A DNA stretch of 64,000 nucleotides from a virus, in IMG/VR virus record IMGVR_UViG_3300044713_000194, positions 32,001-96,000 of that record; one strand, written 5' to 3'. Below, in pieces: positions 35,784 through 54,112 of this stretch. Under the pieces are notes generated by a model that made no database searches, had not been told where the DNA came from, and was given only the letters and a program-made list of their open reading frames with translations. The translations under genes were made by a program, and so were the position numbers. Each line of letters opens with the position of its first letter. Within the stretch, counting starts at the first letter, position 1.

Positions 35784-35888
35784 GTGAAACATTTATTGTC
35801 GAGTTCGCTATCCCTCTCATCGCTGTGCTATTTGCTCAGCGGTACGGGTTCGCGTGCTGGAAAGCGGGACGGTTACGATTACTACTAA
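35784..35888 (+). CDS. attenuator leader peptide 1 (MKHLLSSSLSLSSLCYLLSGTGSRAGKRDGYDYY)
   Basis: 16 consecutive Leu/Ser/Cys/Tyr codons that match the downstream tRNAs; GTG start possibly leaderless. Confidence 0.8.
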   Translation: MKHLLSSSLSLSSLCYLLSGTGSRAGKRDGYDYY

Positions 35889-35946: not shown

Positions 35947-36032
35947 GCGGGCATGGCTGGAATTGGCAGACGCGACGGTCCCAAACACCGTTGTCCCTGG
36001 ACGTGGGGGTTCGACTCCCTCTGCCCGCACCA
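35947..36032 (+). tRNA. tRNA-Leu(CAA), C33
   Basis: Cloverleaf, loop CC-CAA-AC, variable arm, CCA. Confidence 0.85.
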
Positions 36033-36047
36033 ACATATTTAGTACGT

Positions 36048-36136
36048 GCACACGTGGGTGAGCGGCTAAAACCACCTGTCTGTAAAACAGGCGCTCCATG
36101 CGGGCTACGCAGGTTCAAATCCTGCCGGGTGCACCA
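36048..36136 (+). tRNA. tRNA-Tyr(GTA)
   Basis: CCTGT-CTGTAAA-ACAGG; CCA. Confidence 0.9.
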
Positions 36137-36154
36137 GGTTTTGTTTTGCAATGA

Positions 36155-36229
36155 GTGTCGGAACCTAATCGGCTAAGGAATGGTCTGCAAAACCATATTT
36201 GGCGGGTTCGACTCCCGCTCGACACTCCA
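36155..36229 (+). tRNA. tRNA-Cys(GCA)
   Basis: ATGGT-CTGCAAA-ACCAT; U73; CCA. Confidence 0.9.
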
Positions 36230-36249
36230 TTAGTTTTGATTTGAAATGT

Positions 36250-36334
36250 CGGGACGTGGCGGAATTGGTAGACGCGCAGGCTTGAGGTGCCTGTGTCCTT
36301 GGACGTAAGGGTTCGACTCCCTTCGTCCCGACCA
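36250..36334 (+). tRNA. tRNA-Leu(GAG)
   Basis: CAGGC-TTGAGGT-GCCTG; CCA. Confidence 0.9.
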
Positions 36335-36340
36335 TCGAGA

Positions 36341-36452
36341 TTGTGTACTGATCCTCGTGAAACGAGGCGCTGGCCGAACCCCCAGTGGACTGGACGAGAG
36401 TTGTGGCAGGCGAATTGACGCCAAGACGTTAGCGTACTCCGGTCGTACACAA
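36341..36452 (+). ncRNA. unknown multibranch RNA between tRNAs
   Basis: Closing helix TTGTGTAC/GTACACAA with internal hairpins (CCTCGT-GAA-ACGAGG). Confidence 0.45.
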
Positions 36453-36465
36453 AATTCAGTTATGT

Positions 36466-36554
36466 GCCCGCGTGGCGGAATTGGCAGACGCGCACGGTTC
36501 AGGTCCGTGAGGCCCTTCGGGGCCGTGGAGGTTCAAGTCCTCTCGTGGGCACCA
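36466..36554 (+). tRNA. tRNA-Leu(CAG)
   Basis: CACGG-TTCAGGT-CCGTG; CCA. Confidence 0.92.
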
Positions 36555-36662
36555 TGAGGTTCAAAGCGTTGAAACGTGAACTACGAGTTGTCAACTCACA
36601 AGTTGTCTAGTCATACATAGTCAAGTCGTACGTTGGTGCCTATGTATAGATAGTCGGGCCAT

Positions 36663-36751
36663 GGGGGCGTAGCAAAATGGCAAAGCGCCGGTCTTAGAAA
36701 CCGGAGGAGGTAACCCCTTCATTGCGAGTTCGACTCTCGCCGCCCCCACCA
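36663..36751 (+). tRNA. tRNA-Leu(TAG)
   Basis: CCGGT-CTTAGAA-ACCGG; CCA. Confidence 0.85.
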
Positions 36752-36903
36752 CAAGTTCATGCTGTCGCGCGATCGCAAGTGTTTCGTGCGTCCACAAGCA
36801 AATAGTGTTGTGCGATTGCAAGCTTTTCATGTTGTGCGTTGGTTAGCTTTTAGCGTCAAGGTCTGATGGTTTCGAGAAGAAATCCGACGGTACCTGACGA
36901 CGA

Positions 36904-36981
36904 GCCCGAGTGAAGGGAAATGGCAGACCTCCCCGCCTTAAGATCGGGGGCTTGTCGGTTCGAAGCCGACCTCGGGCACCA
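36904..36981 (+). tRNA. tRNA-Leu(TAA), short variable arm
   Basis: Loop CT-TAA-GA; GCCCGAG/CTCGGGC acceptor; CCA. Confidence 0.8.
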
Positions 36982-36992
36982 AAATCTGAAAC

Positions 36993-37080
36993 GGTGAGTT
37001 GGGAGAGAGGCTGATTCCAGCGGATTGCTAATCCGCCGAGCCTTCGGGCTCCGCGAGTTCGAATCTCGCACTCACCGCCA
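36993..37080 (+). tRNA. tRNA-Ser(GCT)
   Basis: GCGGA-TTGCTAA-TCCGC; long variable arm. Confidence 0.92.
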
Positions 37081-37190
37081 TATTTGCTGTGCAGCAAATA
37101 TTACCGTTTAGGAGGCCTTGAGCCCTTAATCGGTAAAATGTTGCCTATTAACGAGGAATGTGTGAAGCTCCCGCCTCGTTAATGAATCAA

Positions 37191-37285
37191 GGTGTCGTGC
37201 GTGAGAGACTGAAACGACTCGCTTGGAAAGCGAGCAGCCCGGCTGAAACCCGGGCTCCTGGGTTTGAATCCCAGCGACACCGCCA
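37191..37285 (+). tRNA. tRNA-Ser(GGA)
   Basis: CTCGC-TTGGAAA-GCGAG. Confidence 0.88.
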
Positions 37286-37343
37286 ATTTGTCCCCATACA
37301 TGGGGCGTTAATCGGCTTTAAAGGGCTATATATGGGTATTTAC

Positions 37344-37438
37344 GGTGGGGTGGCAGAGCCCGCTTTATTGCACCGGTCTCGAAAATCGGCGTGGCCGTGA
37401 TCCGGCTACCGTGGGTTGAAATCCCACCCCCACCGCCA
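37344..37438 (+). tRNA. tRNA-Ser(CGA)
   Basis: CCGGT-CTCGAAA-ATCGG. Confidence 0.85.
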
Positions 37439-37489
37439 GCTTGGTGCACGAATCGTAGCTCAGCTACGACGTATAGAATCGTTTCAAAC

Positions 37490-37577
37490 GGAGGGCTGCC
37501 GGAGTGGTTTATCGGGCCGGTCTTGAAAACCGTTGAGCCTTCGGGCTCCGTGGGTTCGAATCCCACGCCCTCCTCCA
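37490..37577 (+). tRNA. tRNA-Ser(TGA)
   Basis: CCGGT-CTTGAAA-ACCGT. Confidence 0.9.
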
Positions 37578-39827: not shown

Positions 39828-40658
39828 TTACAGTAACACGAGCGCGGTCCCGCACTCGGCGCAGAACTTATTTGTGGCCTTATTAACGCGTCCGCAGGTT
39901 GAACACTTCGGCTTGCGGTTCACAGTCACAGCCCGCTGGACGGGCTGCTCGCCGACGCGCCCGCGAAGCCTCAGTACGATCGTGTGGCTCTGTGACTCGG
40001 TCGGGAACCAATCGCCGTTCACGAACACCTGATCGCTCTCGCTACCGGGCACCGTGATCCCCGCTTCGTTTACGGATGCCTCATTCATATTGAACGAGAC
40101 GGGAGCCGTCACATCGACGCTAGAGGTATTGCAGAAAGAGACGGGAGCCAGGCCGCCTATAAGAGGCCCCTGTGTTCCGCCTTGAACGTTCCCGGACCAT
40201 ACGGGCTGGGAGCCGAGATGGACGCGCGGCCATTCCCAGTAGGGCCGATAGTAATCGTGGTTGTGGTAATGATGATGTTCAACGATCGACCGAGATTCTC
40301 CCTGCGGGATCTCAAAGCGGTACTCGACGCGAATCAAACCGTCCTCGGCCTTGATGCCGCGATGGTTCTCGATGCCCTCGGTCCGCTCGATGAACTTGAA
40401 ACTATTGCCGGTCTTCAAGTTTCCGTTGCGAATAAACCGCTGGAGGTCGATTTCGCCGTTGGCCGGAACAATCAATCCGGTGCCGTCCGTCGTATCGGTC
40501 CCATCTATCCAAACCTGGGCGATAGCACGGACGGAGTTGAGGTTCTTCAAAAGAACGGTGTAGGCGGAGCCGAATGGGAGAGTGACTGTGTCGTCCTGCT
40601 CACGGAGGATCTGGCCCCCGGATTTTACGCACACGACGAATCTGTTGCGATAGGTCAT
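39828..40658 (-). CDS. hypothetical protein with C-terminal Zn ribbon
   Basis: 276 aa; CSTCG...FCAECG. Confidence 0.75.
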   Translation of the reverse strand: MTYRNRFVVCVKSGGQILREQDDTVTLPFGSAYTVLLKNLNSVRAIAQVWIDGTDTTDGTGLIVPANGEIDLQRFIRNGNLKTGNSFKFIERTEGIENHRGIKAEDGLIRVEYRFEIPQGESRSIVEHHHYHNHDYYRPYWEWPRVHLGSQPVWSGNVQGGTQGPLIGGLAPVSFCNTSSVDVTAPVSFNMNEASVNEAGITVPGSESDQVFVNGDWFPTESQSHTIVLRLRGRVGEQPVQRAVTVNRKPKCSTCGRVNKATNKFCAECGTALVLL

Positions 40659-40815
40659 GATTTACCTTCTACGGCCCACCGGCTAAGGACCTGCGTTGCT
40701 GTTTTAAGCCGGTTAGATTAGGGACTGGCGTCCCTGTATAAGGGTCCGATAATCAGTTTCCGTTTTTACTTCCGCTTCTCCCGTTTCAAGCCGCTAAATG
40801 GGTCTGCCCGAAATA

Positions 40816-40891
40816 TGGAGCGAGCGATGGGACTCGAACCCACGACCAACAGCTTGGAAGGCTGAGACTCTAGCCGCTGAGTTACGCTCGC
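40816..40891 (-). tRNA. tRNA-Gly(TCC)
   Basis: Loop CT-TCC-AA; CCA. Confidence 0.92.
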
Positions 40892-41154
40892 AGTTTTAAC
40901 CTTGACACCGGAGGTCGAATATGACCGATCGCCCTAGACAAAGGGGGATGGAAGTAGCGCGTCACAGAAACCCCGTCTTGGGGAGGTTTGCTACAGACAA
41001 TTGCAAGTGAAGTTGAAATCAAGTGGGGTTGACTTTGGACTCCTCGGCGGCGGCTTCATTACGCCTTCTCACGGCACAGGAGCGATCGCTTAAACCGAAG
41101 AAAAGCAGGACCAGAAGAACCAGTGCGAACTCCATTACGATACCTCTAAGAAAA

Positions 41155-41231
41155 TGGTCGGCCCAGGTCGCATCGAACGACCAACCTCGGCCTTATCAAG
41201 ACCGCGCTCTAGCCAATTGAGCTATGGGCCG
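41155..41231 (-). tRNA. tRNA-Ile(GAT)
   Basis: Loop TT-GAT-AA; CCA. Confidence 0.9.
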
Positions 41232-41234
41232 CAC

Positions 41235-41873
41235 TTAAACTCCACGCCGCGTCAGTAACCAAGACCGCTTCGACACTTTCACTCCGACAGGTTCGTTATC
41301 CGCACAACACGCGGGCTTGAAAACCGGGTGGCCGTGGTACTTACACCACTCCGTACGCCCCTCGGAGTCCGGTACGTCCAATTGCTGCTGTCCGTACTCG
41401 CAACGCTCACACGAGAACCCGAGCGGATTGTCCGTCGATCCGGCGCTGAGGCGCTCGTCTTTCCATCGTCCGCTGGGACAGCGCCTGCCTTCGGGGTCGC
41501 CTGTGTTGGGCTGCTCCCAAAAACCGCAGCTAAAATTGTGCGGCTTATTGATTACCTTGGGATCGCGTAGGAGGCATTCATGGTTAAGAATGACGAACAT
41601 GTTACATGAGGGAGAACTTCCGTTCTTCCGCCCGCCACAAAGGTAGGCTCCCGTCTCGTCGTACGTGTTGGGGAGGCCGCACCGAGCATCCGCGTAGTTG
41701 GATGTCCGGACTCCACGCATGCGGAGCTTTGCAAACATGACCTCCTGGTCTTTGGTAAGCGCTCCCTTAGGCTTTGCGAAGAAACCATCCGCATCAAGCG
41801 GAGCGTCGAGGATGGGCCTGCCCTCGACCTGAGTTTGATCAGGCATAATCCGAGACTCCGTTGGACTCAGCAA
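41235..41873 (-). CDS. Cys-rich hypothetical protein
   Basis: 212 aa with about 11 Cys. Confidence 0.65.
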   Translation of the reverse strand: MLSPTESRIMPDQTQVEGRPILDAPLDADGFFAKPKGALTKDQEVMFAKLRMRGVRTSNYADARCGLPNTYDETGAYLCGGRKNGSSPSCNMFVILNHECLLRDPKVINKPHNFSCGFWEQPNTGDPEGRRCPSGRWKDERLSAGSTDNPLGFSCERCEYGQQQLDVPDSEGRTEWCKYHGHPVFKPACCADNEPVGVKVSKRSWLLTRRGV

Positions 41874-41924
41874 GAGTGCGAAAGCCTATTTGCACGCACT
41901 CCCTACATAGGCCTGAAAAGTTCA

Positions 41925-42715
41925 ACGGCGCATCGCCGCCCTAACCACCGGCGACATCTACGCGCGAGAGTCAGATCGCTATCACCATCGACCTGCGCCC
42001 GGGCTCCGGAACGGGTACGTCTGATTCAGGCCGGGCTCTTTGCCAATTAGAAGACCTCACCGCCGCGTGCAATCTACCTGCTGTGGGCAAGCCGCATCTG
42101 CGGTAATTGAGGGAGGGATTCGAACCCTCATTCCCCGGCATCTCAATGTTTGCCCCCTGCGGCCACCCCTCGCGCAGGGTTACAGCCGTATTTGGTCAGG
42201 AGGTCTTTAGCGCGGATCATGGGGCGCTTCAACGGACGAAGTCCTCGACCATCCCTCACGGCTCGACCGGGTATCTAATCCGGCCTACCCCTTTACGTTG
42301 CGCCTTACCGCCGTGGCCGCATCGCGCTGCTCCACGGTTCTCTTATGGGGCCGGTAGCCCGTTTCCGCTCTAATGCACCTGCGTGCGGCTGGGAGTCGAA
42401 CCCAGCCAAGCTGCCGTTGCCCAGCCTGGTTGATGACGATGCGCGGGTCGGGTCGGATTCGAACCGACGATCGGCGGTGGTGCCCACCGCTGCTTTAGTC
42501 CGCCTAAGCTACCGACCGCGCATCTTTCCGCCCGGTCCCATCGACCACGCGACTACCGTCTCTTGGCGTTTCGGACCCCACCCCCGGGGTCCAGACGGTG
42601 CCTGCTCGCTCGGAACCTTACCGGGCGGAAACCTAAATGGGGTCTTTTATCCCTTACGGGTGTCGCTCAGAGCGCCTGCCGAAGCATAAAACTCCGCCAC
42701 AACATTTTCCCCATA
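41925..42715 (-). ncRNA. large (~800 nt) structured ncRNA candidate with an embedded tRNA-like domain (GOLLD/ROOL-like size)
   Basis: No credible ORF; three T-loop hairpins; long-range helices; GGATTAGATACCC hairpin. Confidence 0.6.
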
Positions 42716-42718
42716 CCT

Positions 42719-42795
42719 TGGTGTGCAGTCTCGGGCTCGAACCGAGGGCCTCCTCTTTGTAAGAGAGGCGCTCTAACCAACTGAGCTAACCACAC
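42719..42795 (-). tRNA. tRNA-Val(TAC)
   Basis: CCTCT-CTTACAA-AGAGG. Confidence 0.92.
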
Positions 42796-42803
42796 ACATC
42801 GCG

Positions 42804-42908
42804 TTGGGTGACGAACCTCACCAGTTCCAGCTTCGACGGGATCGAACCGCCTCCGTCCCTCGCGGGACTCTCGCCTGATGAGTACGACTGCCGCCGCTCA
42901 TCACCCAA
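42804..42908 (-). ncRNA. ~105-nt structured RNA with T-loop
   Basis: Ends pair (TTGGGTGA/TCACCCAA); internal GGTTCGATCC. Confidence 0.45.
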
Positions 42909-42946
42909 ATTCACACGGCCAAGATAACTACCATGGCCGTGTTAGT

Positions 42947-43105
42947 TCACCTCAACTTCGGACAGACCTCGTGGTAGTGGTCCTTCGACCCACAGTAGCT
43001 GCACTTACGCCTCGCCAGGTTGCCCTGCCCGTTCCAGGTCTTCGGACAGTGGTCCGTGTCGTGGCAATGACTGCCGCAGTAGGAACACCAAAGTCGCTTG
43101 GTCAT
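42947..43105 (-). CDS. 52-aa double CCHC zinc-knuckle protein (not in ORF track)
   Basis: MTKRLWCSYCGSHCHDTDHCPK...CSYCGSKDHYHEVCPKLR; ATGA overlap with upstream stop. Confidence 0.8.
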   Translation of the reverse strand: MTKRLWCSYCGSHCHDTDHCPKTWNGQGNLARRKCSYCGSKDHYHEVCPKLR

Positions 43106-43326
43106 TTGCGCACAATCACAAGTATGATGACGAGGACTATTCCGGCCAGCAGTACCATGTCTATCATCCGCACACTCGGAAGCGCCGACGAATCCGAACT
43201 ATGCAATTTGACTGACCGCTTTTTCGGTTGGTGTTGGGGGCAATAGTCCGAACCGAATGCCGACTTCTGCCAGCAGCGTCCTCGCCCGCTTCCCGTTCCG
43301 TAAATACAAGCTTTCATCGCAACCAC
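43102..43326 (-). CDS. small protein with C-terminal TM helix
   Basis: Cys motif plus hydrophobic tail. Confidence 0.55.
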   Translation of the reverse strand: MVAMKACIYGTGSGRGRCWQKSAFGSDYCPQHQPKKRSVKLHSSDSSALPSVRMIDMVLLAGIVLVIILVIVRK

Positions 43327-43327
43327 C

Positions 43328-43405
43328 TGGCACCCCGAGTAGGACTTGAACCTACGCCCTCTTCCTTCGGTGGGAAGTGCTCTGATCCGACTGAGCTACC
43401 GGGGC
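43328..43405 (-). tRNA. tRNA-Arg(CCG), A33
   Basis: CTTCC-CACCGAA-GGAAG. Confidence 0.85.
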
Positions 43406-43472
43406 AAAATCAAAAACCTGAAATGACTACGATCCGAAATCGCGACAATTCAAAAGCCGAGTGAACCGTAGC

Positions 43473-43709
43473 CTATTTCTTCGCCTTCAACTCTGCCCGC
43501 ATTGTCGCAGCATCTTTGGGCCACAACCATCTCTTAAAACTGGTCAATTTGCTCTCCGGGACGTGGGTGCGCTTGCAAGCGGCACAGCAGGCGATCACAT
43601 TGAGAGCGTCCTCGGTCTCTACGGTGTAACCGTATGCCTGGGTATTCGGGCAGAAGTCGCACTTCACAGTCTTCTCCGAATATTTTTCTTCCAAAATCTG
43701 CTTCGCCAT
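43473..43709 (-). CDS. small Zn-finger protein
   Basis: CDFC...CAAC; AGGAG RBS. Confidence 0.65.
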   Translation of the reverse strand: MAKQILEEKYSEKTVKCDFCPNTQAYGYTVETEDALNVIACCAACKRTHVPESKLTSFKRWLWPKDAATMRAELKAKK

Positions 43710-43727
43710 ACTTCTCCTGCAACCTTA

Positions 43728-43804
43728 TGGTGTCCCCGGAGAGACTTGAACTCCCGACCTGTTGATTCGTAGTCAGCCGCTCTATCCAACTGAGCTACGA
43801 GGAC
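43728..43804 (-). tRNA. tRNA-Arg(ACG)
   Basis: Loop CT-ACG-AA. Confidence 0.92.
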
Positions 43805-43987
43805 ACGGCCATTTAGAAAAATCCGCCGATCGTCAGATCGCCTGGATGCAAGCAGAGGCAATTGAGAACCGTCAACTCCTTCACGGTTAGTGGAGACTTC
43901 TTTTTCTCCGCGCTCGACCGAAGATCCGTGCAGACGACCTCAACTAGCCTACTGAAGCAGTATGGGCATAGATCACCCGCTTTCAAT

Positions 43988-44440
43988 TCACCCATTTCGC
44001 GCCGCCTCCCTACCGCTGCCTGTGATAGCCCAAAGCGTGCGCGGACGACGGTGAAGATTGTCGATTCCCGCATCCACAATGAAACCCTTCTTGACAAGGG
44101 GCTCCATGCGCGGCGTGATCGATCCGTACCAGGTCTGCGTGCGTTCGGCGATAGCGTGACACGTGAGCGGCCTGTCGGCGGCCATAAGGCATTGCAAAAC
44201 CACTTGCTCGGATTCGGCTACATTCATCCGGCTCGCGGCGATCTTTGAGGTTGCCCGATCCCCGTTACGCGCAAACGCCGCGCCAGGCCTTGGTGTACGG
44301 TAGCGTCGCGACGGATAGGCCGCGTCGAGAAGTTCCTCGGCTTTGACCGCGAAGCCTGGCGGGATCTCGTACCCCATCAGAAGCCTGACAAGCTCGCTGG
44401 CGACCGCGCGATTATCGGAGTGGCCGGACAAAACGCCCAT
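43988..44440 (-). CDS. winged-helix DNA-binding protein
   Basis: LTCHAIAERT...SITPRMEPLVKKGFIVD. Confidence 0.65.
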   Translation of the reverse strand: MGVLSGHSDNRAVASELVRLLMGYEIPPGFAVKAEELLDAAYPSRRYRTPRPGAAFARNGDRATSKIAASRMNVAESEQVVLQCLMAADRPLTCHAIAERTQTWYGSITPRMEPLVKKGFIVDAGIDNLHRRPRTLWAITGSGREAARNG

Positions 44441-44474
44441 GAGGGTTAGTACTGTCCGGCGTTCCGTTTCCCGA

Positions 44475-44660
44475 TTACTGCTTCGCTAAAGCCGCCTTAT
44501 CGGCGTCGATATGCTTATCGATACATTCACCGCACCACCAGGTGTCGGCCACGAGATCGTGATCGTTGCAGGGCTTGCCGCACTCGCAGCATTTGCCGTC
44601 CATCGGACAATCGCAGGTGCCATCCGGGCGGAAATGGTTCTTCAGTCGGCACATCGTCAA
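44475..44660 (-). CDS. small Cys-rich protein
   Basis: ORF track; CxxC pairs. Confidence 0.5.
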   Translation of the reverse strand: MTMCRLKNHFRPDGTCDCPMDGKCCECGKPCNDHDLVADTWWCGECIDKHIDADKAALAKQ

Positions 44661-44718
44661 TCCCCACTTCTAGTTGACCACTCCGGATTCGGGCCGGTGG
44701 CCTCTGATCTACGGACCG

Positions 44719-44934
44719 TCAATGATTCGCATCCATGTGTTCTCCTAGAAGCTGGAGAACCAGGGCGGCATCGGTAAAGCGCCGATCAAGATTTGCCCGA
44801 AATTGGCATCCGGCCTCCTGGCACCTGTAAAATGAGCTTGTCTCGTCCACGTCGATGCGCCGCGCGGTGGTTGAGTACATGAACGGAGCCATCGAAAACC
44901 GCACTGTGTCCGGCCAACCTTCCAGTACGTTCAC
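44719..44934 (-). CDS. small hypothetical protein
   Basis: GGAGG RBS after GTATTA motif. Confidence 0.55.
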   Translation of the reverse strand: MNVLEGWPDTVRFSMAPFMYSTTARRIDVDETSSFYRCQEAGCQFRANLDRRFTDAALVLQLLGEHMDANH

Positions 44935-44984
44935 GGAACCTCCACTAAGAGGTAATACGCCGCGTCAGGGCGGAACTGAAATAT

Positions 44985-45063
44985 TGGAGGCCCCGGCGCG
45001 ATTTGAACGCGCGACCTACCCGTTAGGACCGGGTTGCTCTTGTCCGGGCTGAGCTACAGGGCC
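44985..45063 (-). tRNA. tRNA-Arg(CCT)
   Basis: ACCCG-GTCCTAA-CGGGT. Confidence 0.88.
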
Positions 45064-45398
45064 GGAATGTTGAAGAAGCCGGTGGCCATACTGAGCTTCA
45101 TCGCGTCGGCGAGGGCGGATTTGATGGTACCTTCGACCCGATCGACCTTACCGACACTCGCATCAAGCCTCTTGACACCCGGAAGAACCAGCGTCTTCAT
45201 CAAGTTCGCGGCTGCATTGAAGTCATCGATACGAGAGGCCAGGTCCTGCTGGTCTAGCTGCGTAAGCAAGGTGTTTAGCCCGGTAACGAGCCCGGCAAGC
45301 ACTCCTTTGGCATCGTCGGATGTGGCGGCGTCCCAATACGCATCAGATGCGCTCTGAGCCGCCTTAGCAACCAAATTGCGTACGTCACTTTGCGTCAT
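45054..45398 (-). CDS. helical hypothetical protein
   Basis: Coupled to lipoprotein gene; stop overlaps tRNA-Arg 5' end. Confidence 0.7.
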   Translation of the reverse strand: MTQSDVRNLVAKAAQSASDAYWDAATSDDAKGVLAGLVTGLNTLLTQLDQQDLASRIDDFNAAANLMKTLVLPGVKRLDASVGKVDRVEGTIKSALADAMKLSMATGFFNIPAL

Positions 45399-46314
45399 GG
45401 TTCGTGTCCTCGGTTACGATCTTGTGATGCTCCGTGGCCAGTCGTTTCAGGCCATCAATCGTGTCGTTCAAGTCCGACTGCGACTTGTCGGCGGCGGCCT
45501 CGATCTGGAACAGTTTTAGGATCTCGGCCCGCTTTTCGACTGGATCGAGGTTTGGATTGTTGTGGATGAATTCAGATTGCTGCATCAGCAGTACGCGATA
45601 GTCTCCCTGGGATTGCACCCGGAGCGTATCCAGATCAGCTTCAAGTAACGAGCAGAGGTCCTGCACAATCGGGTCCGCTTCTTTCATCAGATTGGGCAGC
45701 CGCTTCTTCACCATGTGATGAATGAAGGGCTTCAACGCCGAGTCCATGCCCGACATAATCGAGTTCACTTGCTGCGGCGTCATGATGACGCTATGGCTGT
45801 TCGTCAGGGTGCTGGTGGAGGTCGTCGTCTGAGTGGTGGTGTCGGTGAGCGTCGGGTTTACCTTGACTGCATTGCTCGATGTGGTAGTGTTGGTATTCGT
45901 AGTCGCGTTGCTGGCCATCTCCGTGCGGGCGGCAGCAGTTGTGATGCTTAAGGATTTTGTCTTCGCCTCGACTTCTACCGCCCGCTGATCGGTGGCAAGA
46001 GCATCGATCAGATCGATGTACTCCTTCAGCGCGGCAATAGCCTCAATCCGGGGCTGCACGTCCTTCTCGGAAATGAAAGGAACCAGTTCGCCCGGGTGGT
46101 AGCCGCCTTGTGCATAGTGGCCAACCAGGACCGACTCCTCTTGGAGCGTGTGAATTTCGTTCGCCGATGTGTAGGCCGTTGATGCTCGGACAAGTGGAGG
46201 AGCGACATTGGCGGAGAATTCGGCCACCTGCCTGGCCCAAGGCCCGTATCCAGCACAACCGGTCAGAAAGAGTAGCAGACTTAGCAACGGCGCGAGCTTT
46301 GAGTTGACCCCCAT
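45385..46314 (-). CDS. lipoprotein
   Basis: MGVNSKLAPLLSLLLFLTGC lipobox. Confidence 0.75.
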   Translation of the reverse strand: MGVNSKLAPLLSLLLFLTGCAGYGPWARQVAEFSANVAPPLVRASTAYTSANEIHTLQEESVLVGHYAQGGYHPGELVPFISEKDVQPRIEAIAALKEYIDLIDALATDQRAVEVEAKTKSLSITTAAARTEMASNATTNTNTTTSSNAVKVNPTLTDTTTQTTTSTSTLTNSHSVIMTPQQVNSIMSGMDSALKPFIHHMVKKRLPNLMKEADPIVQDLCSLLEADLDTLRVQSQGDYRVLLMQQSEFIHNNPNLDPVEKRAEILKLFQIEAAADKSQSDLNDTIDGLKRLATEHHKIVTEDTNHDAK

Positions 46315-46541
46315 CAAGCACCTCTCGCTATAAGCTAAATAGTCTGAGGGTCGAAAATCGCTAAGCCCTCGGAAGAAACCACCTCGGCTGCCCAAACAAC
46401 TGGTGAGTGAGCGAATGCCGGGCCAGATCGCACAGCATGCACTCCTCGCGATCCAGGCTGACCGGCTCGAACCGATGTCCCGCCAGCAGTGTGCACACCG
46501 GACGCAAAAACGTTCTCCACTTCATCGTTAACTCCTCGATT

Positions 46542-46618
46542 TGGTGCTCCAGATGGGATTCGAACCCATATCTCCGCCGTGAAAGGGCGGCCACCTAAAC
46601 CATTAGTACGACTGGAGC
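46542..46618 (-). tRNA. tRNA-Glu(TTC)
   Basis: CCGCC-CTTTCAC-GGCGG. Confidence 0.9.
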
Positions 46619-46680
46619 GTCTTTAAAGCTGCAATTTTCTACGCTTGAGCCTCTTACAAACTGCTGTTTTTCAAAACCAG

Positions 46681-46757
46681 TGGAGGGCGCGGCAGGACTC
46701 GAACCCGCCTGATCCACCTACGGTTTCTCGTTTAGAAAACGAGACCGATACACGCCC
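46681..46757 (-). ncRNA. atypical D-armless tRNA-like RNA (loop TT-TCT-AA)
   Basis: Acceptor stem, T arm and CCA present; D arm absent; long 3' variable region. Confidence 0.6.
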
Positions 46758-46782
46758 AACTTGACCGTATTCGCGAACAAAC

Positions 46783-47010
46783 CTATACGTACTTGAAGGT
46801 GCCCTTTTGTAGCATCTTAAGCGCCGATTCGAGCGCCTTCTCGCCGTTCGGCCTTTTGAGCCTCTGAATCGGCGTCAGTCCTGCAAACCTGTGCTTGGGT
46901 AGCTTGAGCCACCGCTGAGCCCGGAATCGGCTGCCGTGAACCTGGATCGCCAACTTCATTATCGAAGCGGGCACTTTTACCTGCGCGGGCTTGACCGTTT
47001 TCTGCCTCAT
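46783..47010 (-). CDS. MbcA/ParS/Xre antitoxin C-terminal domain protein (DUF2384-like)
   Basis: AQRWLKLP..RFAGLTPIQRL...GEKALESAL. Confidence 0.7.
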   Translation of the reverse strand: MRQKTVKPAQVKVPASIMKLAIQVHGSRFRAQRWLKLPKHRFAGLTPIQRLKRPNGEKALESALKMLQKGTFKYV

Positions 47011-47123
47011 GAATGGTAATACTGAGGCTTATGGTCAGTCCGGATTAAAAGCCTTTTATTTTTCGCCTGGAAGCTAGGCGGCCCAATAAACAGCGGTTGA
47101 ACTTCAAGTGACTTCTCCCTCCA

Positions 47124-47498
47124 TTGCAGAGGGTATTTATGACCGCCGCCGAACTGCTAGTCCAGAGCATTCGCAAAGCAACTCAGCTAGAGATGCAGAC
47201 GGATGAAGACGTCTTTACCCCATTCATCGTCTTCTTCAATCCCGTCAGCGATGCATCTGAGGTTGTTTGCCTCGTCTATGAGAACGCCGAAGACCTCCTC
47301 GAAGACCTGAAAGAGGCTCTCCAAAAGAAATGGGAACCGGTCGCCGTCGAACTATGCGAAGGCGAGGACGTCGAGAAGGATGACTTCCCGTGCCTCGGGT
47401 GGATGTATTTCAGCGATGATCCCAGCCTCGAACACCAGGCCATTATGGATAGTCTCCACGAGCCCGATGTCGCCGAGGACCATGTCTCCGAAGCGTAA
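47124..47498 (+). CDS. acidic hypothetical protein
   Basis: Very D/E-rich; antisense within tRNA array 2. Confidence 0.6.
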   Translation: MQRVFMTAAELLVQSIRKATQLEMQTDEDVFTPFIVFFNPVSDASEVVCLVYENAEDLLEDLKEALQKKWEPVAVELCEGEDVEKDDFPCLGWMYFSDDPSLEHQAIMDSLHEPDVAEDHVSEA

Positions 47499-47499
47499 C

Positions 47500-47591
47500 T
47501 GGTGCGCCCGGCAGGATTCGAACCTGCGGCGGGAGTTTCCTCCGTCCGATTAAAAGTCGGGTCCCTGCTAACCAGACTCGGGTACGAGCGC
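47500..47591 (-). tRNA. tRNA-Lys(TTT) with long variable arm
   Basis: Loop CT-TTT-AA; variable hairpin GGAG-GAAA-CTCC. Confidence 0.8.
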
Positions 47592-47599
47592 GTTAAAAC

Positions 47600-47674
47600 T
47601 GGTGGGCCGTCAGAGGATCGAACTCTGCTCTGAGGATTAAGAGTCCCCTGCTTCGCCGACAAAGCTTACAGCCC
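47600..47674 (-). tRNA. tRNA-Lys(CTT)
   Basis: Loop CT-CTT-AA. Confidence 0.88.
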
Positions 47675-47771
47675 AAACTTGATGCGTTTTCACTGAAAAC
47701 CCCGTTTTATATGGTGTCATAAAGTGCATCAAAACACCCCGAAAACGGGGGTTTTGCTACAGAGAATGACA

Positions 47772-47848
47772 TGGTGGGCCTGGTGGTGATTCGAACCCAC
47801 AGCCTTCCGATTATGAGTCGGCTGCTCTACCAATTGAGCTACAGGCCC
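47772..47848 (-). tRNA. tRNA-Ile2(CAT)
   Basis: CAT anticodon with GGGCCTG acceptor typical of lysidine-modified Ile2; identity inferred. Confidence 0.75.
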
Positions 47849-47853
47849 AAATC

Positions 47854-47930
47854 TGGTGGCGGCGGAAGCAATCGAAGCTTCGACCTTGGGGTTATGAGTC
47901 CCACGCTCTGACCACCTGAGCTACGCCGCC
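47854..47930 (-). tRNA. tRNA-Met(CAT) elongator
   Basis: GGCGGCG acceptor; loop CT-CAT-AA. Confidence 0.82.
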
Positions 47931-47934
47931 ACGA

Positions 47935-48350
47935 TGATTGCTTCGACGAGCAGGGCTGGCAACCTGCATCTGCGGCTTCTGGATAGGTGGGCCGCTGACT
48001 TCCGTTAGGGGGTTGACACCGTGCCCCCATTCCGCTCCGCCGTTTCCGGAGTTAATCGATCATCGATCTTCGCGCACCCTTCAGATTATCCCCACTCTTG
48101 CAGGAACCAAGCCTGTCGGCCTGGCGGGATCGGCACCACGGTTACCCGCTGCGCTTATATGCCGAACTTTCCGATCGGGTGTGTTGCTACACCAAAGAAC
48201 TCTGACCGGCGAATCGTCGTTTGTTCCTCTTATCCGGAGGACTTCACTAAATCTGTAAATTCGCCGGGTGCGGTATCGCCTTGCGGCGTCCGCGCGGTTC
48301 ACTCTTTAAAGGAAATGGCTACTTTTAGGCCAACCTCCCCGGTCGAAATT
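47935..48350 (-). ncRNA. structured ncRNA with a 23S rRNA GTPase-centre (H43/H44)-like domain
   Basis: GGAGGTTGGCCTAAAAGTAGCCATTTCCTTTAAAGAGT...TTCTTTGGTGTAGCAACAC; no credible ORF. Confidence 0.6.
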
Positions 48351-48352
48351 TA

Positions 48353-48428
48353 TGGCGGGGCCGACGAGCTTCGATCTCGCTACCTCGGCAGTGACAGTGC
48401 CGCGCTCTGCCAATTGAGCTACGACCCC
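48353..48428 (-). tRNA. tRNA-Asp(GTC)
   Basis: CGGCA-CTGTCAC-TGCCG. Confidence 0.9.
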
Positions 48429-48445
48429 GCAAAAACCTCGAAGAT

Positions 48446-48521
48446 TGGCATGGGCAGAGGGATTCGAACCCCCAAGTTCGGTTTTGGAGACCGACAGTTT
48501 ACCAATTGAGCTTATGCCCAT
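48446..48521 (-). tRNA. tRNA-Trp(CCA)
   Basis: TCGGT-CTCCAAA-ACCGA. Confidence 0.9.
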
Positions 48522-48602
48522 GTATGCCCGGCCATCGTGTAGGCCGGGTTCAACTTCACTTTCAATTGTCAAAGACCTTCACCTGGGCCTGAGCCCCGAT
48601 CT

Positions 48603-48692
48603 TGGTGGGGGTGGGTGGGCGGAAGCAATCGAGCAGCCGATCCCACGTCCCTTTGAACGTTTTAGCTGCTCTTTCCTCCGATCCGCATCCCC
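48603..48692 (-). ncRNA. CCA-ended hairpin RNA, first unit of array 2
   Basis: GGGGATG/CACCCCC-A-CCA acceptor-like stem on a long hairpin. Confidence 0.4.
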
Positions 48693-48694
48693 AC

Positions 48695-48724
48695 AAAGCA
48701 AAACCCCCGGCCTTAGCCGGGGGT
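48695..48724 (-). terminator. attenuator terminator 2
   Basis: ACCCCCGGC-TAAG-GCCGGGGGT-TTTGCTTT. Confidence 0.85.
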
Positions 48725-48750
48725 CGTGAACCTACGAGTAAACCACTCGG

Positions 48751-48852
48751 TTACACGGAACCCCCCAGCACGCGATCCCATCCTTCGCGCACTACGCTCT
48801 CCATCCGCTTAACGCGGATGTTGACAGTCGTTTTTATGGTCCTGGAGTTCAT
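48751..48852 (-). CDS. attenuator leader peptide 2 (MNSRTIKTTVNIRVKRMESVVREGWDRVLGGSV)
   Basis: GGAAGGA RBS; codons cover all 13 canonical tRNAs of array 2. Confidence 0.8.
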   Translation of the reverse strand: MNSRTIKTTVNIRVKRMESVVREGWDRVLGGSV

Positions 48853-48873
48853 GTAAAGAGTATCCTTCCCTTG

Positions 48874-48902
48874 CTTGGACGTAATCCCTAGCCAAAAGTT
48901 GC
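48874..48902 (-). promoter_or_regulatory. tRNA-array promoter 2
   Basis: GCAAC-N16-CGTCCAAG. Confidence 0.75.
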
Positions 48903-48933
48903 GAAGTTTTGTAGGATTTGATTCGGAGGTAAT

Positions 48934-49149
48934 ATGTCAATCAACACACTCGTATCCGAAATCGATCATGAAATTGCCGGACTCACTCAAGCCCGGAAGA
49001 TCCTAACCTCTTTAAACGGGCATTCGACACGACCCGCCGCCGGAACGCATAAACGCAGGCCTCTCTCGGTCGCGGCCCGGAAGCGGATCGCTGCGGCCCA
49101 AAAGAAACGATGGGCGGAGCAGAGGAAAGCCGCGAAGAAAACTGCGTAG
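48934..49149 (+). CDS. small basic DNA-binding-like protein (SxxARKRIAAAQKKRWA)
   Basis: GGAGG RBS; coiled coil plus basic tail. Confidence 0.75.
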   Translation: MSINTLVSEIDHEIAGLTQARKILTSLNGHSTRPAAGTHKRRPLSVAARKRIAAAQKKRWAEQRKAAKKTA

Positions 49150-49150
49150 A

Positions 49151-49390
49151 CTAAGCCCGCGCCAGCTTCTCTTCTACAAACCCCCGCACAACTTCTTTAG
49201 CCTTAACCTGATCGATGGGATGGAACGCGCCTACGGCGTGCACGACAGGGCCGCCGCCGCGTTCCTCGATCACCACGACAAACTCATTGAATGGGCAAGC
49301 CTTCGTGAGGCGGTCCGCGAGATCCCACGCGGCATCCGCCGTTCGTGTCTTCGTGATGCGGTTGAGTAGAAGCATAGAAGAGGCCGTCAT
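49151..49390 (-). CDS. small hypothetical protein
   Basis: ORF track. Confidence 0.5.
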   Translation of the reverse strand: MTASSMLLLNRITKTRTADAAWDLADRLTKACPFNEFVVVIEERGGGPVVHAVGAFHPIDQVKAKEVVRGFVEEKLARA

Positions 49391-49438
49391 AACGATGGCT
49401 TCTTCATTATGCTTTGAAGTTGCTTAATCGGAAACTGT

Positions 49439-49515
49439 TGGTCGGGACGGTCAGATTCGAACTGGCGACCTTACGCACCCCAAGCGTACGCTCTACCAGG
49501 CTGAGCCACGCCCCG
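49439..49515 (-). tRNA. tRNA-Pro(GGG)
   Basis: TACGC-TTGGGGT-GCGTA. Confidence 0.9.
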
Positions 49516-49518
49516 ACA

Positions 49519-49788
49519 TCACTTAAACATCCCGATTATCTTGACACAATCGGGAGTTAAACTAAGCAGCGCCTGCTGCAAATTTAGCTCTGTACGAAGT
49601 TTCTCTTCGGTCCAGTCACTATTCTCGATCTTTAGCCGCGCCAGGGCATTGAGATAGGGATACGTTCCGAAGCACATTAACAACTGGGTTGTAGGCCAGT
49701 CAGATGCCTCAATAACCATTCGCGCGTAATTTTGGAATCCAGTCTCAAACTCTTGTCGCAGACGACTTTTCGTTTCACTATCCATCAA
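49519..49788 (-). CDS. small hypothetical protein
   Basis: AAGGAG RBS. Confidence 0.6.
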   Translation of the reverse strand: MMDSETKSRLRQEFETGFQNYARMVIEASDWPTTQLLMCFGTYPYLNALARLKIENSDWTEEKLRTELNLQQALLSLTPDCVKIIGMFK

Positions 49789-49801
49789 CTCTCCTTAGAG
49801 T

Positions 49802-49879
49802 TGGCCCGAGGAGCGGGAGTCGAACCTGCCCACCGGATGACTGCGCAGACCCCGGCGCTACCCACATGCCAGTCCTCGG
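49802..49879 (-). ncRNA. tRNA-like RNA with enlarged anticodon loop
   Basis: CCGAGGA/TCCTCGG-G-CCA; T arm; 13-nt loop. Confidence 0.55.
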
Positions 49880-50146
49880 TTAAAGCTTCGCTGTTGGCGG
49901 AAGCGGGTGATTCCAGTTTTTCTTCATCCACCAGTTGAGGCTGCCGACAATTACGAATACACCGGCTGCCGCACCGACACAACACATCGCGCGAAAAGCG
50001 TCATCGGGGTCGGTAAAGGCCGAATAAACCATGCCACCGAGCGCAAATAACAGACCCGCAACGCAAAGCGTGATCGCAATTGCCTTTGCGACTTTCCCGA
50101 CTGCACCCAGAAACCGCGCCGTCCTATATTGCCATGTCATCACCAA
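49880..50146 (-). CDS. two-TM membrane protein
   Basis: Two hydrophobic segments. Confidence 0.6.
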   Translation of the reverse strand: MVMTWQYRTARFLGAVGKVAKAIAITLCVAGLLFALGGMVYSAFTDPDDAFRAMCCVGAAAGVFVIVGSLNWWMKKNWNHPLPPTAKL

Positions 50147-51356: not shown

Positions 51357-52562
51357 TCAGTCTTTATAGGGGTCCCGCTCTGTCGAAGACGCCATTGCCA
51401 CGCCAACCGGCGTCAGCCGGTGCAGAATCTTGACCGAGTCCTCGACTGAAGCCAGGACCTCGTCAAGGCGCTTGTAGCAATCCGGCGACTCATCGAGGCC
51501 GCCGCCGCGAAGCTCGATACCCGCGCGATCGATCCAGGCACGCATCATCTCCTGGGTAACTTTGCCTTCACGGACGACGCGGACTTCACCCGTCTCCTTG
51601 TTCTTCTTGGTAACACCGGTCGCTTCCTTGCGCCCCATCGCGCGGCCTGCACCGTGCACGGTCGAGTAGAGAGAGTACTTTGCGTTCTCGTTCTCGACAC
51701 CCTCAAGGATCACCGACTGCTCACCCATCGAGCCGCCGACAAAGCCCTTCCGGCCTGGGTAGGCCGGTGTTGCCCCCTTACGGACAACCCAATACCACTC
51801 ACCGCCATGGAATTCACGCCATGCATAATTGTGGTGGTTGTGGACTTCCTCAATAACGGGAGCGCCGAGAATCTTTGCAACGCGATCACATACCCAGTCG
51901 CGGCCCGAATAAGCGTAGGCACCGGCCAAATGCATCGCCAGGAGGTACTGGTCACCGAGATCGCTCTTCACGTCAAGCACGCATGGCTCAACCTCCATGC
52001 CGTCCTTCGCTCCGGCAGCCTTGAGGAACCAGGTTGCGATGCCGTGGCCAAGACCGCGCGAACCGAAGTGCACGCCAATCCAGACGCGATCCTGCTCGTC
52101 GGTGAACAGGTCCACGTAGTGGTTGCCGGAGCCCACCGTACCAAGCTGAACGACAGCCTTCTGATGCAGAGGCTTGCAGGCCGCCAGCTTCCACGCATCG
52201 GCATGGGCGAAGTCTTCCCACAAGACGGAGCTATCGACCTTCTCGTTGTTCTTGCGGCCTACGCCGAAGCTGATCGTCTTCCACACGTCGTCCATGATCG
52301 TCTTGATGTTGGCGCGAAGCTCCGTGCCGGTCATGTCTACGCGGACTGCCTTGTTGCCGCAGCCGATGTCGTAGCCCACGCCGGTCGGGCTGATGGCATC
52401 CTTGTACGCCACCACTCCGCCGATCGGCACACCGTAGCCCAGATGGTTGTCTGGCATCAGCGCCACCTTGTCGGCGGTCTTCGCGCACGTGCGTATCTGG
52501 TTGAGCGTCTTCTCGTCGGCTTCGCCGAATACCGGGATCTTTCCGTCAATGAGTTGCATCAT
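51357..52562 (-). CDS. rtcB: RtcB RNA ligase
   Basis: PDNHLGYGVPIG, VGYDIGCG, LGTVGSGNHY, HFGSRG, HNHHNYA, RKGAT, HGAGR, DESPDCYK. Confidence 0.95.
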   Translation of the reverse strand: MMQLIDGKIPVFGEADEKTLNQIRTCAKTADKVALMPDNHLGYGVPIGGVVAYKDAISPTGVGYDIGCGNKAVRVDMTGTELRANIKTIMDDVWKTISFGVGRKNNEKVDSSVLWEDFAHADAWKLAACKPLHQKAVVQLGTVGSGNHYVDLFTDEQDRVWIGVHFGSRGLGHGIATWFLKAAGAKDGMEVEPCVLDVKSDLGDQYLLAMHLAGAYAYSGRDWVCDRVAKILGAPVIEEVHNHHNYAWREFHGGEWYWVVRKGATPAYPGRKGFVGGSMGEQSVILEGVENENAKYSLYSTVHGAGRAMGRKEATGVTKKNKETGEVRVVREGKVTQEMMRAWIDRAGIELRGGGLDESPDCYKRLDEVLASVEDSVKILHRLTPVGVAMASSTERDPYKD

Positions 52563-54112
52563 TTCTTTTCTCCCGCGACCTCGTCTTTTGACCAGTACCA
52601 CTTTCCCTTATTCTGCACTACGCCCTTGAATCCACGCGGTGGGCAAAACTCGCGGCCTTCTATGTCGAGGAATGCCCGCTTGCGAGCCCGTATAGCGTAG
52701 ATACCGTCCCTCATGCATGGTTGGGGCACAATTGGCAGTAGAACTGCGATCGCCATCAACGTTCACACCTGGGCTGTCCAGTAGTTCTCGCGTCGAATGC
52801 AATCGAGGCAAGCTCCGCAGCCGCTGCAATGGCTTACCGCCGGTACCCGCATTGCCGCGAGGACGCGTGCCGCCAAAGTATCGTCGAACTTTTCGGATCG
52901 TCCATCGAAGAAGCCTCTCATAGGCTCCTGCCGTGGCCGATAGCAATGCTTTCGAATCTCGTCTGCGGTCTTGATGTCTTGTGCGATCGGCTTCACGTCA
53001 CAATGAATGCAGAGGCGGTTGACGATGTTTACCGAGCCGCAACGATCACAGAAGGCGTGACCGTCCGCGCGGTAGTTGATGCCGTCGCGCATGGAGTACT
53101 CCATGGGCTCCGCCGCACATTCGTCTCCCGTGGTATTTGGCATGTTCCGAAAACCTCCCTAGTGGCTAATACTGAGGCGGAAGGACGGAATTCACATACC
53201 CATTAACATTATTCCAAATATTCTTGGTGACCGCCCTGCGCCGCCCGTTTATGTGCTTCGCGGCGTTTCCGCTTGTGTCCAAAGTACTTATCGGCGTGAC
53301 AAAGCTTTGAGCCGCAGCCAAGGTTCCACTTGGAGTATCGACCCCAGGCGGAAGGCTCCGTGGGATGGACACGGTTGATGAGGTTGGTGCGTTCCTGAAC
53401 GCGGTGACTGTCGGTCCAGACGTGGTCATGGATAAAGCGCCGCTTCGCGATGACGCGGTCGCGCTGGTGCCGACGTTCGGCACGATTGGTTGGATGACTC
53501 ATGGCTGATGCCGCCCCCTTCGTGCGGTGTGTTACATCGAAGCCATGAATTCCTCCTCGGACACTTCCACAAGAATCGCCCCCGTTTCGTCTTCAATTAT
53601 CCACTTGCGATCGAGCCCAAGCTCAATCAGTTCGCGTACCCCGATTTCAGGAGGCACATCGGCCAGGTTCCTCAGCCGGATTTCACTCAGCCTAATTTGG
53701 AGAGACCGAAGACTGAACATCGTTCCATTGAGTTCCCGCAGCGCGGCTTTGAAATCGAAGATACCGTTCATAAGTCTGTGCCCTTGTGTGTTTCCAGTTG
53801 GTGTGGATCAGAAGGCGCAAGAAATTCAGTACCGGGCTGTTTTCGATGAACTCCACTGGGAGGCCGTCACGACCGATCGGAGTCTTGCCGAATATCTTCA
53901 CCCTCGCCCCCTTTCTCTACTGGCGCATGATCCGATTCCGGCAACATACACTTAGGAATCTCCGTGCGTATTCCGCCGATATATGCGCACACCTCGATAC
54001 AATCGTCCCAGCTATGCCCGTCCTTGCGCATATTGCGCACCAGGCGCTCCAGCCCGCGCCGAAAGTTCCGGATTTCCCGCCTACGCTGGAGCCACTTTTT
54101 CAGCCAGATCAT
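52559..54112 (-). other. small hypothetical genes (52559-52759, 52763-53143, 53209-53502, 53532-53771, 53867-54112)
   Basis: Co-oriented short ORFs with RBSs. Confidence 0.5.

Follow-up and report, generated by a model that had tools for sequence, protein, structure and literature searches.

In transcription attenuators of the thr, ilv, trp and his type, a short translated open reading frame (ORF) rich in regulatory codons is combined with alternative 1:2, 2:3 and 3:4 helices, and region 2 is covered once a ribosome has reached the stop codon; the thr leader contains Thr and Ile codons, and that of ilvGMEDA contains Ile, Leu and Val codons. pheST (Phe-tRNA synthetase) of E. coli likewise has an attenuator with the pheM leader, and T-boxes, which contain no ORF, bind uncharged tRNA themselves. 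Here we analyze a locus with the anatomy of the first of these classes, leader ORF 2 (L2), in a window of 64,000 nucleotides (the whole stretch of DNA under study, to which positions refer), namely bases 32001-96000 of a 107,636-bp virus contig (IMG/VR record IMGVR_UViG_3300044713_000194; CheckV completeness ~35%). Modeling and comparison of the sequence indicate that L2 is probably a transcription attenuator of the ribosome-mediated (trp/thr/ilv) type, controlling the second of three tRNA blocks of a large phage. The anatomy of the leader, its alternative pairings, its codon statistics, its paralogs and its recurrence in relatives are all observed in silico and, with the ORF and terminator themselves, support the attenuator that an initial annotation had proposed from the sequence; all predictions of this class on structure and codon use that sequence alone can address are borne out.

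Unlike the thr, ilv, trp and his attenuators, L2 precedes tRNA genes rather than biosynthetic enzymes, samples 11-13 tRNA species rather than runs of one to three amino acids, and is phage-borne, in a set of three units that partition a near-complete tRNA set. With pheST/pheM it shares leader-peptide attenuation of a translation component matched to the sensed codons; pheST, however, is a chromosomal synthetase gene that concerns a single amino acid. A T-box too senses a specific tRNA state and operates a terminator/antiterminator switch before translation-related genes, but it binds the tRNA itself, whereas L2 would work through its ORF; a T-box riboswitch (RF00230) was ruled out by the lack of an Rfam hit, and a scan of 40500-49500 for Rfam cis-regulators (gathering score or E up to 1) returned only tRNA-like matches. 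A full-text literature search recovered no published leader-peptide control of tRNA arrays. The nearest case is the trn operon of Anabaena sp. PCC 7120, a long tRNA array that translational stress switches on and that shares its regulation with rtcB; the control described for it is exerted at the promoter, by the repressor TrcR and direct repeats, with no mention of a leader, attenuation or a terminator (PMC8421152, PMC10272220). An accessory tRNA array linked to rtcB (in block 3 of our phage) is kept silent and induced on impaired translation in Anabaena, through a repressor at the promoter, and would be here, through the proposed leader attenuation. The multivalent thr/ilv-type mechanism is known; trp-operon-style control of tRNA genes would be, as far as we have found, new.

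Codon content of leader ORF 2 and the tRNA block behind it

Leader ORF 2 sits 22 nt 3' of a conserved promoter-like motif:

48874..48904, minus strand: promoter-like motif of leader 2, TCGCAAC-TTT-N10-TTA-CGTC-CAAG
48863..48870, minus strand: Shine-Dalgarno-like GGGAAGGA, 10 nt 5' of the ATG
48751..48852, minus strand: leader ORF 2, ATG plus 32 sense codons (33 codons) and TAA, with codons 2-24/25 as the sensing stretch

All of the contig's tRNA genes (39/39) fall inside the window, grouped as three blocks:

35947-37577, plus strand: block 1, tRNAs for Leu (five), Ser (four), Tyr and Cys
48521-40816, minus strand: block 2, 13 canonical tRNAs (ARAGORN, Rfam)
58929-49439, minus strand: block 3, tRNAs for Asn, Ala, Phe, Pro, Gln, Gly-GCC, Thr, His and others, with rtcB inside

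The canonical tRNA genes of block 2 are:

48446-48521, minus strand: tRNA-Trp(CCA)
48353-48428, minus strand: tRNA-Asp(GTC)
47854-47930, minus strand: CAT-anticodon tRNA, Met-like, of ambiguous identity
47772-47848, minus strand: CAT-anticodon tRNA, Ile2-like
47600-47674, minus strand: tRNA-Lys(CTT)
47500-47591, minus strand: tRNA-Lys(TTT)
46542-46618, minus strand: tRNA-Glu(TTC)
44985-45063, minus strand: tRNA-Arg(CCT)
43728-43804, minus strand: tRNA-Arg(ACG)
43328-43405, minus strand: tRNA-Arg(CCG)
42719-42795, minus strand: tRNA-Val(TAC)
41155-41231, minus strand: tRNA-Ile(GAT)
40816-40891, minus strand: tRNA-Gly(TCC)

The CAT tRNA at 47772-47848 aligns over its full length to E. coli genes annotated as tRNA-Ile, about two per genome; as this is expected for a lysidine-type Ile2 tRNA, it supports the Ile2/ATA assignment.

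The initial annotation had read a cognate codon for every canonical tRNA of this array in the leader, and such codons are indeed present for 13/13: AGG, ATA, AAA, ATC, CGC (three times), AAG, CGG, an internal ATG, GAG, GAA, GTA/GTG/GTC/GTT, GGA, TGG and GAT. Under strict wobble rules, 20 of the 32 sense codons following the ATG are cognate to block 2, versus 37.5% of the phage coding sequence (binomial P=3.7e-3), a fraction reached by 0.98% of the 23,995 real-gene windows of the phage that formed the comparison set. Leader 2 covers 13 of the 14 tRNAs called by ARAGORN in the block, against a gene-window average of 7.2 (P=2.5e-4), and it covers 11/11 when Trp and Asp are left out (P=8e-5); in none of the 23,995 gene windows do the two properties, coverage and cognate fraction, coincide. 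Among 657 ORFs of 25-45 codons in all frames of the contig, two cover 13/13 canonical tRNAs, and a single one, which we take to be leader 2, combines coverage of at least 12 with a cognate fraction of at least 0.6. The joint presence of the rare codons AGG (4.5 per 1000) and ATA (3.7 per 1000), which had also been pointed out, recurs in just 1.8% of the gene windows. The amino acids whose tRNAs are exclusive to block 2 (Trp, Asp, Met, Ile, Lys, Glu and Val) account for 15 codons of L2 and for 4 each in the leaders of the other two blocks, L1 and L3; L2 is devoid of Ala, Gln, Pro, Phe and His codons, of which those for Ala, Gln and Pro occur in L3.

Terminator, alternative pairings and the predicted switch

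The transcript of leader 2 contains the following elements, the pairings being those of the full-length minimum free energy (MFE) and growing-transcript folds (region 1) or of the co-transcriptional folds (regions 2 and 3):

48844..48850, minus strand: region 1, GAACTCC, codons 1-3, pairing with region 2 when untranslated and burying the AUG
48754..48766, minus strand: region 2, GGGGGGTTCCGTG, the last five codons, 5' arm of the antiterminator
48719..48728, minus strand: region 3, CACGACCCCC, common to the antiterminator and the terminator 5' arm
48725-48702 with T-tract to 48695, minus strand: intrinsic terminator, 10-bp stem with 8 G-C pairs, 4-nt loop, TTTTGCTTT tail, -21.8 kcal/mol
48522..48694, minus strand: spacer of ~175 nt from the terminator to tRNA-Trp, with a hairpin just before tRNA-Trp

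The terminator begins 25 nt past the stop codon of leader 2. It had been suggested that the last codons of the leader pair with the 5' arm of this terminator and would be covered by a ribosome at the stop, and the folds agree on both counts. In co-transcriptional folds, GGGGGGTTCCGTG (48766-48754) pairs with CACGACCCCC (48728-48719), so that in transcripts ending before the terminator 3' arm its 5' arm is held by the last codons; this 2:3 pairing consumes the C-run that the terminator requires, ACCCCC being common to both stems. The 2:3 helix including its inner hairpin amounts to -22.4 kcal/mol (the inner hairpin alone, -10.3), a net gain of about -12 kcal/mol, and the helices of the trp leader have energies similar to those of leader 2. 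When a ribosome was modeled as a mask on transcripts cut before the terminator 3' arm, with an assumed footprint reaching 12 nt past the A-site, the antiterminator was the MFE structure at any A-site codon up to 24, weakened at 26 and absent from 28 on. In growing transcripts free of ribosomes the 1:2 pairing GAACUCC/GGGGUUC (-10.5 kcal/mol) forms first; it is part of the MFE structure at transcript lengths 99-128, and the full-length MFE structure consists of the 1:2 helix and the terminator.

These folds suggest the following scheme. Transcription would start at the promoter-like motif (48904-48874) and the 33-codon ORF would be translated, with codons 2-24/25 sampling the decoding capacity of three Arg isoacceptors, two Lys isoacceptors, Ile, Ile2, Met, Glu, Val, Gly-TCC and perhaps Trp and Asp. 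A ribosome stalled in this stretch would leave region 2 free to pair with the emerging region 3, which would block the terminator and let RNA polymerase enter the tRNA genes and intervening ORFs. Upon fast decoding, a ribosome at the last codons or the stop would cover region 2, region 3 would pair with region 4 and transcription would end at about 48700; if there were no translation, region 1 would pair with region 2 first, and termination would again be the outcome. The modeled logic would be that of the classical trp system: termination both when the leader is untranslated and when it is translated quickly, and read-through when a ribosome stalls among the sensing codons. As its output would be the very tRNAs that it tests, such a circuit would regulate their supply by negative feedback.

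Sister leaders and the shared promoter-like motif

Two further leaders head the other tRNA blocks of the contig:

35784-35888, plus strand: leader L1, heading block 1
35749-35778, plus strand: promoter-like motif of leader 1
59140-59042, minus strand: leader L3, heading block 3
59192-59163, minus strand: promoter-like motif of leader 3

L1, L2 and L3 share the same motif, spacing and terminator tail (GGGGTTTT..TTTG), and the ORFs in between are entirely different. L1 contains 16 consecutive Leu/Ser/Cys/Tyr codons before the Leu/Ser/Cys/Tyr block, and L3 is rich in Gln, Ala, Thr, Pro, Asn, Gly, Phe and His codons. When cognate codons are counted for each leader against each block, the table ([20,8,6; 4,20,9; 2,6,21]) is diagonal (chi-square P=1.2e-8).

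The motif itself, 30 nt long and of the form TCGCAACTTT-N10-TTACGTCCAAG with identical spacing, has exactly 3 sites in the 107.6-kb contig, one before each leader, and no others even at five mismatches, a uniqueness that holds for a fragment of ~35% of the genome only and to that extent tempers our reading. It is unlike sigma-70 promoters and matches the layout of group IV (ECF) sigma promoters, with a G, AAC and a T-tract at -35, a 16-nt gap and CGTC at -10 (PMC1540707, PMC5758882). This resemblance offers a lead toward a putative dedicated ECF-sigma-type promoter before the leaders; a search of the ~35% complete contig found no sigma factor or sigma domain. Exact matches to the motif elsewhere (18 in IMG/VR and 2 in a metagenome collection) are all in coding sequence that is unrelated and free of tRNAs, and were set aside as chance. 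Separately, a fourth exact copy of the 11-mer TTACGTCCAAG is seen at 36298-36308 (minus strand), antisense within tRNA-Leu(GAG) (36250-36334, plus strand), where ~0.05 would be expected by chance.

The arrangement common to the three sites, a strong terminator about 150-180 nt after a conserved motif, is PR'-tR'-like, and could be read as a promoter-proximal terminator, either leaky, so as to set a low basal level, or relieved by an antiterminator, protein or RNA (lambda Q/N-like or put-like), with an incidental ORF; a 33-codon open frame is not improbable at 56% G+C. We consider this improbable, as it leaves unexplained the enrichment of own-block codons with full tRNA coverage, the diagonal table (P about 1e-8), the Shine-Dalgarno sites before each ORF and the position of the antiterminator arm exactly under the terminating ribosome.

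Downstream of L3, within block 3, lies a gene for an RtcB RNA ligase (51357-52601, minus strand; Pfam E=6.6e-69), by which tRNA repair and tRNA supply may be co-controlled. A search for RtcB relatives found 66 IMG/VR loci, and the ten closest of these had no tRNA arrays nearby.

Leaders and tRNA arrays in relatives

Relatives of the phage terminase at 40-49% identity carry tRNA arrays, and a pipeline search for the order short ORF, terminator, tRNA, complemented by inspection, recovered ten further leader/array pairs in four phages (G002, G004, G006 and G007). Thr/Gln/Ile-rich leaders precede Ile-Thr-Gln arrays in G002, G004 and G006 (that of G002 also contains Cys, and its array includes a Cys tRNA); Leu/Ser/Tyr-rich leaders precede Tyr-Leu arrays; Met/Pro/Phe-rich leaders precede Pro-Met-Phe arrays; Ala/Val/Gly/Cys/Glu/Asp-rich leaders precede Val-Ala-Cys-Asp-Gly-Glu arrays; and one leader rich in Lys/Arg/His/Gln/Asn precedes a Gln-His-Arg-Asn-Lys array. 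Together with L1-L3, all 13 of 13 leaders are enriched in the amino acids of their own array (z 2.0-6.3), and wherever a genome has three or four leaders (three genomes), the actual assignment of leaders to arrays outranks all permutations (rank 1 of 6, 24 and 24). Like L2, these leaders combine a short ORF and a matching array with a G-rich 3' end that pairs with the terminator 5' arm, and the antiterminator geometry is the same in most of them, with 0/200 shuffles matching it; shuffle rows based on automatic terminators were not used for L3 and three of the relatives' leaders, where the hairpin was missed or wrong.

The relatives also differ from our phage. In place of the ECF-like motif, the leaders of G004 and G007 follow a sigma-70-like TTGACA-17-TAATAT, and this recurrence of the codon mirroring in ten leaders with different promoters is again unaccounted for if a trans-acting antiterminator merely overcomes the terminator. 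Furthermore, block 2 merges isotypes that are kept in separate arrays there: the Ile tRNA accompanies Thr/Gln and the Met tRNA accompanies Pro/Phe in the relatives, both are in block 2 here, and L2 has Ile and Met codons, which implies that leader content follows the tRNAs after rearrangement.

In G003, which has 40 tRNAs in mixed isotype order, the pipeline found no leader or terminator cassette (locus L104, G003:178001-197000); either the leader system is not universal in this phage group or the pipeline missed the G003 leader, and isotype-sorted tRNAs seem to go together with leader control. The terminase relatives G008 and G010-G015 carry too few tRNAs for a comparison of leaders. The G003 array also includes suppressor-like CTA and TAT anticodons, and pairs of CTA-anticodon tRNAs (called Pyl by ARAGORN; amber-suppressor-like) recur in separate small arrays at loci L105, L109 and L110 (G004, G006 and G007); these pairs may point to stop-codon reassignment or suppression in the phage group.

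The EGWD peptide motif and the extent of the transcript

Codons 22-25 of leader 2 (48789-48778, minus strand) encode E-G-W-D, 11 codons before the stop. EGW(D) is also present, 5 codons before the stop, in the leaders of three relatives, with EGWD itself in those of G006 and G007, and sequence kinship of leader 2 with the relatives' leaders is limited to this motif:

L109, 5938-6027: relative's leader with E-G-W-(D)
L111, 1960-2091: relative's leader with E-G-W-(D)
L114, 1082-1168: relative's leader with E-G-W-(D)
L105, 3803-3714: relative's leader with E-G-W-(D)

In 25,974 aa of phage proteins EGW occurs 2 times and EGWD 0 times. Since the codons of the motif differ synonymously between leaders (GAA/GAG, GGA/GGC/GGT/GGG, GAT/GAC), selection at the level of the peptide is hinted at, and judging from these sequences EGWD may be a trace of common ancestry, or act on the ribosome as a nascent peptide, rather than serve in sensing; the nascent peptide might additionally tune ribosome dwell time. 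The Trp and Asp codons may accordingly not be sensors, being located in this shared motif.

The same hint of peptide selection, together with the 175-nt spacer after the terminator, would fit a leader ORF that is an independent small-protein gene with its own terminator, with the tRNAs transcribed from separate downstream promoters. We regard this as very improbable. The three ORFs behind one motif lack any mutual peptide similarity apart from Gly-rich ends and have no family matches; the same grounds led us to discard a lipoprotein or signal peptide as an explanation of the leaders. As for downstream promoters, no convincing sigma-70 promoter was seen in the spacer (48522..48694), sigma-70-like sites in 40000-50000 are at chance level (4 found versus 4.2 expected), and the promoter-like motif of the leaders has no further copy inside block 2.

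Weighing the attenuator reading

Several observations count against the attenuator as we propose it. As the initial annotation had noted, Asn, Thr and Ser codons (2, 3 and 3, respectively) do not match the array; seven of these (Asn twice, Thr three times, Ser twice) fall within codons 2-24 and are served by tRNAs of other blocks, which bears out its remark that the fit is looser than in the other two leaders, and each block-2 tRNA has just 1-3 leader codons. Asn stands at codon 2 in 6/13 leaders, where it is probably a feature of the initiation context, and Thr is common in several relatives' leaders whose arrays have no Thr tRNA. The energetic gain of the antiterminator, -13.2 kcal/mol, compares with -7.7 +/- 2.8 in shuffles, 3% of which reach it; owing to the G-richness of the region, it exceeds shuffled upstream sequence by a modest margin (P about 0.03). 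When full-length transcripts of L1-L3 are folded to equilibrium under a ribosome mask, the terminator prevails as the MFE structure in every case, and the switch must therefore be kinetic. Searches of IMG/VR and metagenome collections found no ortholog of leader 2. Within block 2, a palindromic hairpin, CCCCGTTTTCGGGG, lies at 47736-47752 (both strands) with T-runs on its flanks, between the Ile2-like and Lys-CTT tRNAs, where it could split the block as a weak terminator, internal or bidirectional; ORF-containing gaps reach up to 1.5 kb. Together with the 175-nt spacer, this hairpin (47752-47736) and the long gaps leave room for internal promoters or terminators. Finally, we infer, rather than observe, that the promoter is active, the ORF translated and the terminator read through, as well as the physiological trigger and the transcription of the 8-kb block as one unit.

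Some of these points bear on what the leader would measure. It is conceivable, and in our view unlikely, that L2 is a real attenuator that reports general translation capacity or amino-acid supply (slow decoding of whatever origin, such as starvation or ribosome-targeting stress), its codon mirroring being partly a result of the shared history of leader and array. Leader-peptide attenuators such as those of trp and his cannot separate uncharged from missing tRNA, L2 samples 11-13 tRNAs at 1-3 codons each in addition to its Asn/Thr/Ser codons, and the Anabaena tRNA operon answers general translational stress (PMC8421152). Extra tRNA, however, is no cure for amino-acid starvation, so that the output fits a tRNA-supply signal better; a generic sensor needs no block-by-block match, yet such a match is seen in three genomes and after rearrangements; and the leader includes the rare AGG and ATA, matching Arg-CCT and the Ile2-like tRNA. 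On our preferred reading the signal may be loss of tRNA to host nucleases or slow decoding of any kind, at the codons served by the leader's own block.

Other features of the region

Two non-canonical tRNA-like elements lie within block 2:

42443-42519, minus strand: called Cys(GCA) by ARAGORN, with position 1:72 unpaired; Rfam tRNA-Sec, 22.7 bits
46685-46757, minus strand: weak Rfam tRNA-Sec match in a permissive scan, 25.9 bits

The first of these was considered as a 14th (Cys) tRNA of the block and demoted, being non-canonical with 22.7 bits against tRNA-Sec. ORFs of no assigned function separate the Arg tRNAs (43328-45063), one of them coding for a winged-helix protein (43988-44440). Pfam and PHROGs scans, which covered the ORFs in and beside the tRNA blocks plus six large head/tail-region proteins, yielded for the ORFs in and flanking block 2 a weak winged-helix match and a zinc ribbon and nothing else; no IMG/VR relatives were found for a 336-aa ORF within the block. 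At the boundary between two tRNA transcription units, a 71-aa ORF (48934-49149, plus strand) is divergent from leader 2 and convergent with the end of block 3. A strong GGAGGT ribosome-binding site precedes it; its product has a basic C-terminus and no family match and could be a candidate regulator. Other genes of the contig include those for a large terminase, tail-fibre-like proteins, the RtcB RNA ligase and a 3091-aa ORF, the last of which (25354-34629, minus strand) is just upstream of the tRNA region.

Implications for phage tRNA arrays

The reasons why large phages carry sets of tRNAs, and the uses they make of them, are debated; those proposed include compensation for codon usage, replacement after host shut-off and escape from tRNA-cleaving defences. 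A wider reading, which we put forward tentatively and hold to be more doubtful than the attenuator itself, is that the three leaders form a phage tRNA-supply homeostat that resolves isoacceptors, and might serve as a counter-defence sensor switching on only the affected block (with the RtcB repair ligase in the case of block 3), all three blocks being under a dedicated ECF-sigma-type promoter; its triggers might be host anticodon nucleases or phage-induced shut-off. Examples of such resolution are GGA and Gly-TCC in block 2 versus GGC/GGT and Gly-GCC in block 3, AGG and Arg-CCT, and ATA and the Ile2-like tRNA. If our reading of L2 is true, textbook leader-peptide attenuation would extend from amino-acid biosynthesis to tRNA genes, with a highly multivalent leader, and the leader would offer a small natural device for sensing how fast particular codons are translated, with possible reuse as a reporter. 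The phage would then measure its tRNA supply and respond block by block, and the debate on phage tRNAs would become testable.

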